Sequence record: OR880646.1
Length of the DNA: 64,000 nucleotides
Strand: one strand, 5' to 3'
Source of the DNA: Escherichia phage ECP2301
The notes below the pieces were generated by a model, which was not told the DNA's origin, did not search any database, and saw only the letters and a program-made list of their open reading frames with translations. Below, one piece after another: positions 9,042 through 13,538 of this stretch; the stretch's first letter is position 1; each line of letters starts with the position of its first letter. Position numbers and translations under genes: made by a program.

Positions 9042-9320
9042 TCAAAATGTAATTTCTAACCAATCACCATCACGCTGATCACTATTGACTTTAAAGCTAA
9101 ATCCTTCTTTTCTCAGCCAATCACCAATTTCTTCAGTAATCAATTTATCGCGAGCAGTACAATAATAACTAAAATATGTTTTACCTTGTTCAGCTGCTTT
9201 ATTAGCAAGTTCCGAAAAATCTTTAATAAAACACTCTAGCTTAAACTGTTTACTTTTAAGTGCTTTTTCACGTAATTGATTAGCAAAAGATTCATTTTCA
9301 TAAAGATCATACTGTTCCAT
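9042..9320 (-). CDS. hypothetical protein (positional equivalent of T4 24.3)
   Basis: 92 aa ORF between rnlB and hoc. Confidence 0.6.
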   Translation of the reverse strand: MEQYDLYENESFANQLREKALKSKQFKLECFIKDFSELANKAAEQGKTYFSYYCTARDKLITEEIGDWLRKEGFSFKVNSDQRDGDWLEITF

Positions 9321-9522
9321 TTTTCACCTTTTTATTAATATGCCTTTTTCTATAGACAACTTTTTCTCGAGTTTCAAATTTATTCTTAGCAGTCATAGCT
9401 CGAGCCCATAATACAGCCACTTCCTTTGCCTGTAAGTTCAATTCACGAGCAATTTCAATGAATGACTTTCCAGACTCATGAAGAGTAAACACCACAACCT
9501 CAGTTCTCATAATCAATCTCAT
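9307..9522 (-). CDS. hypothetical small basic protein (positional equivalent of T4 24.2)
   Basis: 71 aa ORF, overlaps next ORF by 14 nt; start codon not verified. Confidence 0.5.
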   Translation of the reverse strand: MRLIMRTEVVVFTLHESGKSFIEIARELNLQAKEVAVLWARAMTAKNKFETREKVVYRKRHINKKVKNGTV

Positions 9523-9611: not shown

Positions 9612-11030
9612 TTATGGATAGGTATAGATGATACCAGTTTCTAAAGCAGTTTTATGAATGATGTATCCATTACGTGATTCTTGAACATCAACTTCTGGAT
9701 AGTCTTTCATCATCTTCTGAAGGGTGTAACGATGCAGGTAGTATTTACTATCTGGATCTTCAGTTTTCCAATCTTTACCTTCTTCGGTCATTTTTTGGAT
9801 TTCATCCATAACCCACCAGCCGCACCAGATATAAGCCGAAGTACGATGTGGAAGAGGATGAACATAAGGCAATTCACCTTCTGGTTCTGGAGCAACTTTA
9901 TCAGTTACCTGAACTTGACCTTCTGCTGTGATAGTTTTGCTATCATAATCAGTAGCAGTAACAGTTGCAGTAACTTCAATAGTTTGACTTCCAATAGATG
10001 ATGTATCAACGGTGTATACATTAGTTGACCCTTCTACTGGAGAAGAATCTTTCTTCCATGAATATTCAATTTGAGCTTCTTCTGGAGCATCAGTGACATT
10101 AGCAGTAAATGTAGCCGAAGCATCTTGCTGAACGTTAATAGAAGGAGGAGTCAATGTAACCTGTGGATTCATTGTCTTCTTATTAACTGTTAATGATACT
10201 TCATTAGAAGTAACTTCCTTTTCATTGTAATTTTCTGCAGTTACTTGAGCTACACACTTAACTGTTTTAGCTCCAACTGTGGTAGGAGTATAGTTAAATG
10301 TAGTAGTAGTTTCTCCATCGACCAGAGAACCGTCAACATACCACTGATACGTAGCAGACGCTCCTGGTGGCTGTGAAGCCAAGGCAGCAGTAAATTGAAC
10401 TGGGGTTCCAATTACCCCGGCAGCAGGATTAGCAGGAGTTACGGCTAACGTAGTTGTCTGTGTCTTCTTATTAACTGTTAATGACACTTCATTAGAAGTA
10501 ACTTCCTTTGCATCATAATCTGCCGCAGTTACTTGAGCTACGCACTTAATTGTTTTAACTCCGCTTGTGTCAGGAGTGTAATTGAATGTAGCGTCAGTTG
10601 CTTCGCTTACAGGAGAACCGTCAACGTGCCATTGATACGTAGCAGATGCACCTGATGGCTGTGAAGCTAAGGCAGCGGTAAATTCAATTGGAGTTCCAAT
10701 CACTCCAGCATCAGGGCTACCAGGAGTTACAGCTAAAGTAGTTGTCTGTGTCTTATTTTGAACTGTGATAGTTGTACTAATTTCTGCTGTTTCAGGTTCA
10801 GATTCTGCAACTTGATTGGTTGCAACGACTTTAATAGTCTTTTGACCGGCAGGTCCTTTTAGTACATAACTAAAAGTTGCTGACGTTTCTTCCTGCGGAG
10901 CGTCGTCTACAGTCCAAGCATATGTAATAGGTCCATCTCCAGTTTGACCACTGGGTGTAGCAGTAAACTGCTGAGTCTGATCTATAACTCCAGTAGGTGT
11001 TTTAGGAGTTATATCAACTGTAAAAGTCAT
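9612..11030 (-). CDS. hoc: highly immunogenic outer capsid protein Hoc, with four Ig-like repeats
   Basis: 472 aa; internal tandem ~96 aa repeats (ATYQW[HY]VDGS...KCVAQVTA...EVTSNEVSLTVNKKT); position between rnlB cluster and inh. Confidence 0.85.
   Translation of the reverse strand: MTFTVDITPKTPTGVIDQTQQFTATPSGQTGDGPITYAWTVDDAPQEETSATFSYVLKGPAGQKTIKVVATNQVAESEPETAEISTTITVQNKTQTTTLAVTPGSPDAGVIGTPIEFTAALASQPSGASATYQWHVDGSPVSEATDATFNYTPDTSGVKTIKCVAQVTAADYDAKEVTSNEVSLTVNKKTQTTTLAVTPANPAAGVIGTPVQFTAALASQPPGASATYQWYVDGSLVDGETTTTFNYTPTTVGAKTVKCVAQVTAENYNEKEVTSNEVSLTVNKKTMNPQVTLTPPSINVQQDASATFTANVTDAPEEAQIEYSWKKDSSPVEGSTNVYTVDTSSIGSQTIEVTATVTATDYDSKTITAEGQVQVTDKVAPEPEGELPYVHPLPHRTSAYIWCGWWVMDEIQKMTEEGKDWKTEDPDSKYYLHRYTLQKMMKDYPEVDVQESRNGYIIHKTALETGIIYTYP
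10173..10748 (-). repeat. two tandem 288 bp coding repeats inside hoc (Ig-like domain duplication)
   Basis: units 10173-10460 and 10461-10748 visibly similar at nucleotide level (~80% by eye). Confidence 0.8.
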
Positions 11031-11039
11031 AAGTTATCC

Positions 11040-11720
11040 TTATTTTAATGTTACGAAAGAAGAATTGCGTGTTTCACGAATTAGAACTGATCCGTCACGA
11101 TTAATGTAGTAAATTAAGCTAAATAAAGTTTGGTGTGCCGACGCATGTTCAAAACTAGTTGGGTGAGATTTCCAATCCGGAGTTTCAGCAATCCACTGGT
11201 AAATCCACCAAGGAACAGTGCAGAATCCTGGATTTTTTCCAATCAGCTGAAGATTCGGACTAAAGTTTTCCGGAAGAGTAAATACAGACGGCTTTTCAGA
11301 TTCAATAATCTCAGCTACAGCCTGCTCGAATTTTTCTTCAACAAAAGGAGTATCTTCAATCAAAACATCGGTATTTTCAGGAATTTTATCCGTTTCTACT
11401 ACTTCAATTTTAATGTCAGATTTAACCGGAGAATCAATCAGAAGTGCTGCCTCTGGATTGACTTCTTCATCGTCATATTTTAATCCGTCTGCAGCATCAG
11501 CAGCATCAATTAAGTCTTTAATAGATAACCCATCAGTCTCTGGCATAGGTTCACTAGCGAGCTTCTGGAGGGCTTCTTCAATATCATTAACGATATTATC
11601 AAAAGATTTATTCTTTTTGACCTTTATACCAAACTGTTCAGCATATTCAGCTAATTTAGCTTTAGCTTCTTTATTATCATCAAGAGCCTTCAGCTCTGCA
11701 ATATAATCTTTATCTATCAT
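11040..11720 (-). CDS. inh: inhibitor of prohead protease
   Basis: 226 aa, position and length as T4 Inh. Confidence 0.75.
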   Translation of the reverse strand: MIDKDYIAELKALDDNKEAKAKLAEYAEQFGIKVKKNKSFDNIVNDIEEALQKLASEPMPETDGLSIKDLIDAADAADGLKYDDEEVNPEAALLIDSPVKSDIKIEVVETDKIPENTDVLIEDTPFVEEKFEQAVAEIIESEKPSVFTLPENFSPNLQLIGKNPGFCTVPWWIYQWIAETPDWKSHPTSFEHASAHQTLFSLIYYINRDGSVLIRETRNSSFVTLK

Positions 11721-11743
11721 AATATTTCCTCAGTATAAATATA

Positions 11744-11751
11744 GATATATT
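11744..11751 (+). promoter_or_regulatory. late promoter TATAAATA for uvsW
   Basis: exact TATAAATA 20 nt upstream of uvsW ATG. Confidence 0.65.
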
Positions 11752-11770
11752 TATTACATGGTATTTAGAC

Positions 11771-13282
11771 ATGACTGACATTAAAGTACATTTTTATGAT
11801 TTTAGTCACGTGAGAATTGATTGTGAAGAAAGTACATTTCATGAACTCCGTGATTTCTTTAGCTTTGAAGCTGATGGGTATCGTTTTAATCCGAAATACA
11901 AATATGGTCACTGGGATGGACGAATCCGTCTTTTAGATTATAATCGCCTTCTTCCATTCGGTTTAGTCGGGCAAATTAAAAAGTTCTGCGATAACTTTGG
12001 CTATAAAGCCTGGATTGACCCACAGATTAACGAAAAAGAAGAATTATCAAGAAAAGATTTTGATGAATGGCTTTCTAAATTAGAAATCTATTCAGGAAAT
12101 AAAAGAATTGAACCGCATTGGTATCAAAAAGATGCAGTGTTCGAAGGATTAGTTAATCGTCGTAGAATTCTTAATCTTCCAACATCCGCAGGTAAATCTT
12201 TAATTCAAGCTTTGCTTGCTCGGTATTATTTGGAAAATTATGAAGGTAAAATTCTTATCATTGTTCCAACAACTGCTCTGACAACTCAGATGGCTGATGA
12301 CTTTGTTGACTATCGTTTATTCAGTCATGCAATGATAAAGAAAATTGGCGGTGGAGCATCAAAAGATGATAAATATAAAAATGATGCACCAGTCGTTGTT
12401 GGTACATGGCAAACTGTAGTAAAACAACCGAAAGAATGGTTCTCACAGTTTGGAATGATGATGAATGATGAATGCCATCTTGCTACAGGAAAAAGTATTT
12501 CATCTATCATATCAGGTTTAAATAACTGTATGTTTAAATTTGGTTTGTCTGGTTCATTACGTGATGGCAAAGCTAATATCATGCAGTATGTTGGAATGTT
12601 TGGCGAAATATTTAAGCCAGTAACGACTTCTAAATTAATGGAAGATGGACAAGTAACTGAGCTAAAAATTAATAGTATTTTTCTTCGCTATCCCGATGAG
12701 TTCACTACTAAATTAAAGGGAAAAACTTACCAAGAAGAAATAAAAATTATCACTGGACTCAGTAAAAGAAATAAATGGATTGCTAAATTAGCTATTAAGC
12801 TTGCACAAAAAGATGAAAACGCTTTTGTCATGTTTAAACACGTATCGCACGGTAAAGCTATTTTCGATTTAATTAAAAATGAATACGATAAAGTTTATTA
12901 CGTATCAGGGGAAGTTGATACCGAAACACGCAACGTAATGAAAACCTTAGCTGAAAACGGTAAAGGAATAATTATAGTAGCTAGTTATGGTGTATTTTCT
13001 ACCGGTATTTCAGTTAAAAATCTGCATCACGTTGTTTTAGCGCACGGTGTTAAATCTAAAATTATTGTATTGCAAACAATAGGTCGCGTATTACGTAAGC
13101 ATGGTTCTAAAACAATCGCAACAGTCTGGGACCTCATAGATGATTGCGGTGTTAAGCCAAAATCTGCTAATACGAAAAAGAAATACGTTCATTTGAACTA
13201 TCTTTTAAAACACGGCATTGATCGTATTCAGCGCTATGCAGATGAAAAATTTAATTACGTAATGAAAACAGTTAATTTATAA
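11771..13282 (+). CDS. uvsW: UvsW DNA/RNA helicase
   Basis: 503 aa; helicase-like motifs (NLPTSAGKS Walker A-type, DECH box in MMNDECHLA); late promoter upstream. Confidence 0.9.
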   Translation: MTDIKVHFYDFSHVRIDCEESTFHELRDFFSFEADGYRFNPKYKYGHWDGRIRLLDYNRLLPFGLVGQIKKFCDNFGYKAWIDPQINEKEELSRKDFDEWLSKLEIYSGNKRIEPHWYQKDAVFEGLVNRRRILNLPTSAGKSLIQALLARYYLENYEGKILIIVPTTALTTQMADDFVDYRLFSHAMIKKIGGGASKDDKYKNDAPVVVGTWQTVVKQPKEWFSQFGMMMNDECHLATGKSISSIISGLNNCMFKFGLSGSLRDGKANIMQYVGMFGEIFKPVTTSKLMEDGQVTELKINSIFLRYPDEFTTKLKGKTYQEEIKIITGLSKRNKWIAKLAIKLAQKDENAFVMFKHVSHGKAIFDLIKNEYDKVYYVSGEVDTETRNVMKTLAENGKGIIIVASYGVFSTGISVKNLHHVVLAHGVKSKIIVLQTIGRVLRKHGSKTIATVWDLIDDCGVKPKSANTKKKYVHLNYLLKHGIDRIQRYADEKFNYVMKTVNL

Positions 13283-13307
13283 GGGCTTCGGCCCTTTGGA
13301 GAAAAAG

Positions 13308-13538
13308 ATGTTACTAGAATTTAAACAATTTCTTTATGAAGCTTCTATTGATGAATTTATGGGTAAAATTGCCTCTTGTCAAACAATAGAAGGTCTAGAA
13401 GAACTTGAAGCTTATTATAAGAAAAGAGTTAAAGAAACTGAATTAAAAGATACTGATGACATCTCTGTGAGAGATGCTTTGGCAGGAAAAAGAGCTGAAT
13501 TAGAAGATTCAGACGATGAAGTAGAAGAAAGCTTTTAA
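13308..13538 (+). CDS. uvsW.1: UvsW.1 small acidic protein
   Basis: 76 aa from ATG 13308 with GGAG SD 6 nt upstream; ORF-track start 13296 is TTG. Confidence 0.75.
   Translation: MLLEFKQFLYEASIDEFMGKIASCQTIEGLEELEAYYKKRVKETELKDTDDISVRDALAGKRAELEDSDDEVEESF

Follow-up and report, generated by a model that had tools for sequence, protein, structure and literature searches.

The hoc gene of Escherichia phage ECP2301 (sequence record OR880646.1) is very probably an intact and common allele whose product is organized as D1 - D2 (copy 1) - D2 (copy 2) - D3 - capsid-binding domain, the two D2 modules being old paralogues whose copy number shifts by unequal recombination. The 64,000-nucleotide stretch of this genome that we analysed (hereafter the window) carries hoc on the minus strand at 9612..11030, a coding sequence of 472 codons plus stop recognized from the list of open reading frames, from matches to the Hoc proteins of ime09 and T4 and from synteny. 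An earlier note made from the sequence of this DNA had observed that the ORF encodes 472 aa against 376 in T4 and that the excess of about 96 aa amounts to one of two tandem copies of a 288-bp unit, at 10173-10748. Both points hold: Tandem Repeats Finder reports a repeat in hoc at 10173-10766 (period 288, 2.1 copies, 83% matches, 0% indels, score 822), and a repeat search of the window pairs 10173-10460 with 10461-10748 as 288-nt copies of 83% identity.

The repeat unit corresponds to 96 codons, in frame. Copy 1 (u1, aa 95-190) occupies 10461..10748 on the minus strand and scores 185.9 bits against an HMM built from D2 units, while copy 2 (u2, aa 191-286) occupies 10173..10460, also on the minus strand, and scores 178.5 bits. 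The copies align without gaps and are identical at 238 of 288 nucleotides (82.6%) and at 75 of 96 residues (78%). Chance could not plausibly produce 288 nt matching at 83% without a gap, and the paralogy of u1 and u2 is beyond doubt. To call the two modules near-identical, as was done initially, was nevertheless an overstatement: the 50 nucleotide differences are distributed along the whole unit and the modules are the same at the protein level only over their last ~22 residues (...KEVTSNEVSLTVNKKT). Every D2 unit opens with the linker-plus-strand motif KTQTTTLAVTP, and the domain that comes after the units opens with KKTMNPQVTLTP.

The repeated modules are embedded in a protein that otherwise follows T4 Hoc closely. 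The first Ig-like domain (D1, aa 1-94; 10749..11030, minus strand) aligns to T4 Hoc 1-94 and contains AlphaFold2 strands between residues 4 and 91 with a pLDDT of about 90. Ig-like domain 3 (D3, aa 287-380; 9891..10172, minus strand) aligns to T4 Hoc 191-284, with predicted strands between residues 290 and 376, and the capsid-binding domain at the C-terminus (aa 381-472; 9615..9890, minus strand) is almost identical to T4 Hoc 285-376 and mostly invariant among 43 homologues. The protein thus combines the N-terminal string of Ig-like (PKD / I-set-like) beta-sandwiches of a Hoc with its capsid-binding domain (query 189-472 matches T4 Hoc 93-376 with 545 bits, the last ~90 residues being almost identical).

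That this Hoc contains one Ig-like domain more than its T4 counterpart, as the earlier note proposed, is borne out by domain prediction, which returned a count different from that of T4 Hoc: (i), the D2 HMM finds four matches in the window protein and three in T4 Hoc, with two in EH2, two in RPN187 and five in ESh36; (ii), Pfam PKD stretches number two in the window protein against one in T4, the counts for EH2, RPN187 and ESh36 being zero, one and three; and (iii), an AlphaFold2 model built on a 43-sequence alignment (mean pLDDT 83.5) contains four beta-sandwich modules, with a pLDDT of about 85-95 across aa 1-378 and the same strand pattern in u1 and u2. Pfam Ig_3 and I-set were in addition matched at aa 289-373. 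D1 scores weakly against the D2 HMM (36.9 bits, aa 2-93) and shares 38-39 identical residues with D2. The model is poor for the C-terminal alpha/beta domain (pLDDT 28-70), though in sequence this domain hardly differs from the T4 domain of solved structure. The best Foldseek matches of the model in the PDB are themselves strings of four Ig domains, namely Dscam1 Ig1-4, Sidekick-2 Ig1-4 and ICAM-5 D1-D4, with E-values of about 1e-13 to 1e-12.

Alignment with T4 Hoc (highly immunogenic outer capsid protein; UniProt P18056; PDB 5VF3 chain Z and 8T1X; 376 aa) locates the added module. The window protein matches 5vf3_Z at E 1e-244 in two overlapping stretches, query 1-181 on T4 1-181 and query 189-472 on T4 93-376, and what is in excess is therefore T4 domain 2, present a second time. 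The two proteins can be aligned position by position through D1, D3 and the capsid-binding domain, and they differ in architecture by one added 96-aa D2 module. The single D2 of T4 is the counterpart of the second copy, u2; it differs from u1 by 57 nucleotide mismatches, and at the three central diagnostic residues it reads '222' where u1 of the window reads '111'. Since T4 D2 matches u2, the module that is extra relative to T4 is u1 (10461-10748). Both proteins are acidic (pI 4.45 for the window Hoc, 4.74 for that of T4); at pH 7 their net charges are calculated to be about -28 and -14, respectively. The window Hoc is in this respect markedly more acidic than T4 Hoc, beyond what the added length alone explains.

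The closest relatives of this gene place it in an established class. The whole window, 98.4% identical over 25 kb to Tequatrovirus ime09 and close relatives, is that of an ime09-like Tequatrovirus. The ime09 Hoc (AEK12435.1) has the same length (472 aa) and the same architecture as the window Hoc, with 98.5% amino acid and 97.6% nucleotide identity, and further 472-aa entries of this architecture come from HP3.2, KRT47, slur04, vB_EcoM_G4507 and others. Only point differences separate the window and ime09 genes, and they are concentrated in u1 (93.8% nucleotide identity, vs 97.6-99% in the rest of the gene). The u2 sequence is 97.6% identical to ime09 u2 and 98.6% identical to the third unit of ESh36. 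As in ime09, the diagnostic residues of u1 and u2 read '111' and '-22', and the window gene has the feature of the ime09-type four-Ig class, two tandem 96-aa D2 units, a first one belonging to the u1 clade and a second one belonging to the u2 clade.

The position of hoc between inh and 24.3 is common to the window, T4 and ime09. Upstream lies inh, the prohead protease inhibitor gene (226-aa ORF; 11040..11720, minus strand), placed as in T4 and ime09, and downstream a gene 24.3 homologue (71-aa ORF; 9307..9522, minus strand), placed as ime09 gp24.3; the order of the window ORFs, compared with the T4 and ime09 annotations, follows the Tevenvirinae order inh - hoc - 24.3 - 24.2 - rnlB - gene 24. 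The gap between inh and uvsW is only about 50 nt long in the window (11721-11770); it contains the homing endonuclease gene segE in T4, whereas ime09 and the window are without segE. Beyond it (11771-13538), the window has a 503-aa uvsW ORF and then a separate 80-aa ORF (13296-13538), as do ime09 uvsW plus uvsW.1, whereas the T4 RefSeq has a single uvsW CDS of 1764 nt, a difference that may be real or a matter of annotation or sequence.

How old is the tandem pair? The implicit model of the earlier note, a tandem duplication that took place recently and in this phage lineage only, starting from the three-Ig form of T4, would account for an excess over T4 of exactly one 288-nt tandem unit, and it could draw on the last ~66 nt of the window's two copies, which are nearly identical. 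Several results tell against it. With 50 of 288 nucleotides different, u1 and u2 are separated by a dS of 0.459 (dN 0.126, dN/dS 0.275), far above the dS of 0.03-0.1 between the window and ime09 in hoc, and the dN/dS of 0.275 indicates that both copies are under purifying selection. When the units of nine two-unit alleles were compared (the window, ime09, HP3.2, KRT47, slur04, OES_C-2, ECML-363, AR1 and one IMG/VR contig), each copy proved nearer to the same-position copy in the eight other phages (87-88%) than to its own neighbour (78%). Mean nucleotide identity across phages was 87.8% for u1 vs u1 and 87.1% for u2 vs u2; for u1 vs u2, it was 77.9% inside one phage and 78.0% across phages. 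First and second units are likewise separated in a neighbour-joining tree (unrooted and computed without bootstraps), in which the window u1 groups with the first units of other four-Ig phages and u2 with the second units, in a clade that also contains T4, RB51 and others. This clustering by position and the identity matrix together show that the tandem arrangement is older than the diversification of these alleles. Adding that the architecture is shared with an estimated 250 or more GenBank phage records, we hold a recent duplication to be very improbable; an event restricted to this lineage is rejected on the dS and on the orthologous clustering of the units.

The same nine alleles speak to two further processes. 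Concerted evolution or gene conversion homogenizing the copies is not seen overall, u1-u2 identity being equal within and between phages. The copies of the window do share an identical 3' end, and the D2 units are visibly mosaic. Only three residues are cleanly diagnostic for u1 versus u2, and units were therefore classified by nucleotide distances and a breakpoint scan.

Misassembly is a well-known hazard of tandem repeats, and the earlier note had raised the possibility of an artefact, here a repeat wrongly expanded by the assembler. However, 50 distinguishing substitutions along the unit allow ordinary reads to place the copies, the 472-aa reading frame is intact, and an orthologous two-unit gene is present in independent genomes from different laboratories and countries (ime09, HP3.2, KRT47, slur04, OES_C-2, ECML-363, AR1 and one IMG/VR contig). 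The number of differing sites and the recurrence of the same structure in so many independent genomes lead us to reject an artefact, which is the most improbable of all the explanations considered here. The original proposal therefore stands in one half and falls in the other: the extra Ig domain does derive from a tandem 288-nt D2 repeat and is no artefact, but the implied notable duplication in this particular phage is contradicted by a dS of 0.46, by the orthology of the copies and by their presence in hundreds of genomes.

The long allele is indeed widespread. A megablast search with hoc matched 655 phage records. In an evenly spaced sample of these, the four-Ig form accounts for 24 of 52 full-coverage rows, each a single piece of 1419-1425 nt, and the T4-like form for the remaining 28, each made of two overlapping pieces that cover about 1131 nt. 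In an evenly spaced tblastn sample of 1367 records, four- or five-Ig forms make up the first 11 of 60 rows. Extrapolated from these evenly spaced samples of the match lists, which agree with each other, an estimated 250-260 or so of the 655 related GenBank phage records would carry the four- or five-Ig form. At the protein level, the best 120 clusters comprise 30 of 468-472 aa, 8 of 568-570 aa and 82 of 376-379 aa, some of the 468-472-aa clusters holding 58-167 member sequences. The proteins go by several names in the sources, among them 'Hoc-like head decoration', 'PKD domain protein' and 'capsid and scaffold protein'.

Comparison of Hoc lengths across Tequatrovirus gives a 2/3/4/5-Ig series of about 281/376/472/568 aa. 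Within the panel of Tequatrovirus-type Hoc proteins that we retrieved, the classes are 281 aa (D1/D2 chimera - D3 - C; EH2), 283 aa (D1 - D2 - C; RPN187), 376 aa (D1 - D2 - D3 - C; T4, RB51, teqhad and JE01), 472 aa (two D2 units; the window, ime09 and others) and 568 aa (three D2 units; ESh36), so that across Tequatrovirus the 288-nt D2 cassette is present zero to three times. Five-Ig proteins are found in Shigella phage ESh36 (568 aa) and in Escherichia phages UGKSEcP1 and UGKSEcP2 (568-570 aa); their cassette, linker and flanking domains are the same as in the window protein, with three D2 units instead of two. At the other end of the series, the first domain of the 281-aa EH2 Hoc scores 125 bits against the D2 HMM (a normal D1 scores about 36) and ends in ...KKT ahead of D3; a deletion across the D1-D2 boundary seems to have left a D1/D2 chimera there.

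Several of these alleles carry traces of how the number may change. Among the alleles with a single unit, those of T4, RB51 and two IMG/VR sequences are u2-type and those of teqhad, RPN187 and IMGVR_2938479101 are u1-type, while the JE01 unit is mixed, being placed with the u2-type by the tree and having u1 residues at the three diagnostic positions. The teqhad gene matches ime09 hoc at 280 of 282 nt in D1 and at 548 of 558 nt in D3 plus the C-terminal domain, and its D2 is best fitted by an ime09 u1 that gives way to u2 at nt 201-226 (6 mismatches, vs 18 for pure u1 and 52 for pure u2). Such a chimera looks like the footprint expected of unequal crossing-over in the conserved KCVAQVTA-coding stretch, although gene conversion between alleles could have produced it instead of a single deletion. 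In the opposite direction, the five-Ig allele of ESh36 reads u1 + KRT47-like u2 + ime09-like u2, a composition suggesting that two different four-Ig alleles recombined unequally and so gave a longer one.

The ESh36 allele also invites another origin for the pair itself. Rather than a duplication, the tandem could be a head-to-tail fusion, by unequal recombination in co-infecting phages, of divergent single-D2 alleles, one u1-type and one u2-type. Both types of single-unit allele are extant (T4 and RB51; teqhad, RPN187 and IMGVR_2938479101), ESh36 looks like exactly such a fusion of two four-Ig alleles, and the linker KTQTTTLAVTP, identical in all units, is a possible crossover site. These data fit an old duplication followed by repeated losses equally well, however; the single unit of teqhad is more easily understood as what a deletion in a two-unit allele left behind, and the D2-like pair of phage DalCa (see below), which is more diverged, hints at a still older two-module state. 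We thus consider a fusion origin unlikely, if a good deal less so than a recent duplication, and favour old paralogues with a shifting copy number. According to this preferred reading, two 96-aa D2 modules were arranged in tandem long before the sequenced alleles diverged, purifying selection keeps both of them, and their number changes when the repeats undergo unequal homologous recombination, be it inside a single genome or among co-infecting phages. The tree bears on the direction of these changes: the single-D2 alleles, that of T4 included, fall inside both unit clades and not outside them. Taken with the deletion-like appearance of teqhad, this position suggests that a description of the long gene as T4 plus a duplication may have the direction of change reversed.

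Variation of this kind extends beyond the ime09-like alleles. JS98-like phages have a separate 2/3/4-Ig series of Hoc lengths (472, 471 and 377 aa, and 282 aa in JS98), in which the repeated module is D3-like (KKT[IM]xGVSVxLTPASI...); in the 471-aa protein, a shift of 94 aa, starting at aa 186, aligns 90 residues of which 72 are identical. Gain and loss of Hoc modules therefore recurs in another lineage with a different domain. The hoc gene of vB_EcoM_DalCa is a mosaic: its last ~276 nt, encoding the capsid-binding domain, are 96% identical to the window, while the protein identity of its Ig part is no more than about 50-59%, which suggests that a recombination boundary lies where the capsid-binding domain begins. 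The DalCa Hoc (471 aa) has two D2-like modules, far more diverged from each other than u1 and u2. Finally, hoc is a non-essential gene, and it appears to be disrupted in T6 (MH550421; the 1132-nt match lacks an annotated CDS and has an ORF of just 186 aa), in SHFML-11 (a 1420-nt match whose CDS starts late) and in FriedrichZschokke/Bas41 (a CDS truncated to 278 aa, without the capsid-binding domain); these may be either homopolymer sequencing errors or real Hoc-null variants.

What may an additional D2 module do? T4 Hoc is a fibre of 180 Å with three Ig-like domains, whose C-terminal domain, the structure of which was solved in the same study, attaches to gp23* hexamers at their centre (Fokine et al. 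2023, PMC10385173). Given its near-T4-identical C-terminal domain, the window Hoc would bind the capsid at the same place, with one monomer on each hexamer, and its fibre is predicted to be one Ig domain longer than that of T4, roughly 4-4.5 nm more if the 180 Å are apportioned over four domains. Fokine et al. (PMC10385173) also proposed a role of Hoc in electrostatic dispersion, on which the more acidic character of the window protein could bear. In phage PNJ-9, D2 of Hoc binds the fucose of MUC2 via S183, L184 and T185 of a NEVSLT motif (Fu et al., J Virol 2024, PMC11853027), a motif that the window Hoc carries twice, at aa 180 and aa 276. The two-Ig Hoc of PNJ-9 (PMC11853027) and the 283-aa Hoc of RPN187, which have the same length, share the D2 module including NEVSLT with the window protein; they are without D3 and have one D2, whereas the window Hoc has D3 and two D2 modules. 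The predicted fibre would thus bear two copies of a module that, in relatives, binds MUC2 fucose and E. coli surfaces, and domain number may act as a tuner of reach or avidity.

As a discovery, the extra domain carries little weight, and its value is modest and practical. A variable number of Ig domains in Hoc, including one more than in T4, is already published: 650 Hoc homologues were described in which a conserved capsid-binding domain carries a string of one to ten Ig-like domains (Fokine et al. 2023, PMC10385173), and Hoc proteins were reported to vary widely in domain number among T4-like phages (Microbiol Spectr 2026, PMC13435897), a study that also covers the Hoc-like protein of Klebsiella phage PMBT63, 46% identical to T4 Hoc and from a different genus. 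The four-Ig allele is old, common and ordinary, deposited and annotated as Hoc in hundreds of genomes. Our search of the literature on four, extra or five Ig-like domains in Hoc turned up no article dealing specifically with the 472-aa form of Tequatrovirus, and none setting out the Tequatrovirus D2 cassette series (0-3 copies) or chimeras of the teqhad type. The allele is relevant to Hoc display and vaccine work with ime09-like phages and to comparisons of mucus adherence among therapeutic T4-like phages, as the fibre is longer and more acidic, and has two or three D2 modules, in about 40% of the sampled Tequatrovirus records. The natural 2/3/4/5-Ig alleles constitute a ready-made set for testing fibre length or valency against adherence.

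A broader picture may be drawn, which we consider possible while leaning slightly against it as a whole: D2 would be a recombination-driven cassette present in 0-3 copies in Tequatrovirus, D3-like modules would have been gained and lost independently in JS98-like phages, the four-Ig form would be ancestral and the three-Ig Hoc of T4 would be a deletion derivative. If this is true, fibre length and adhesin valency would be a standing polymorphism in phage populations, possibly kept by niche-dependent selection.
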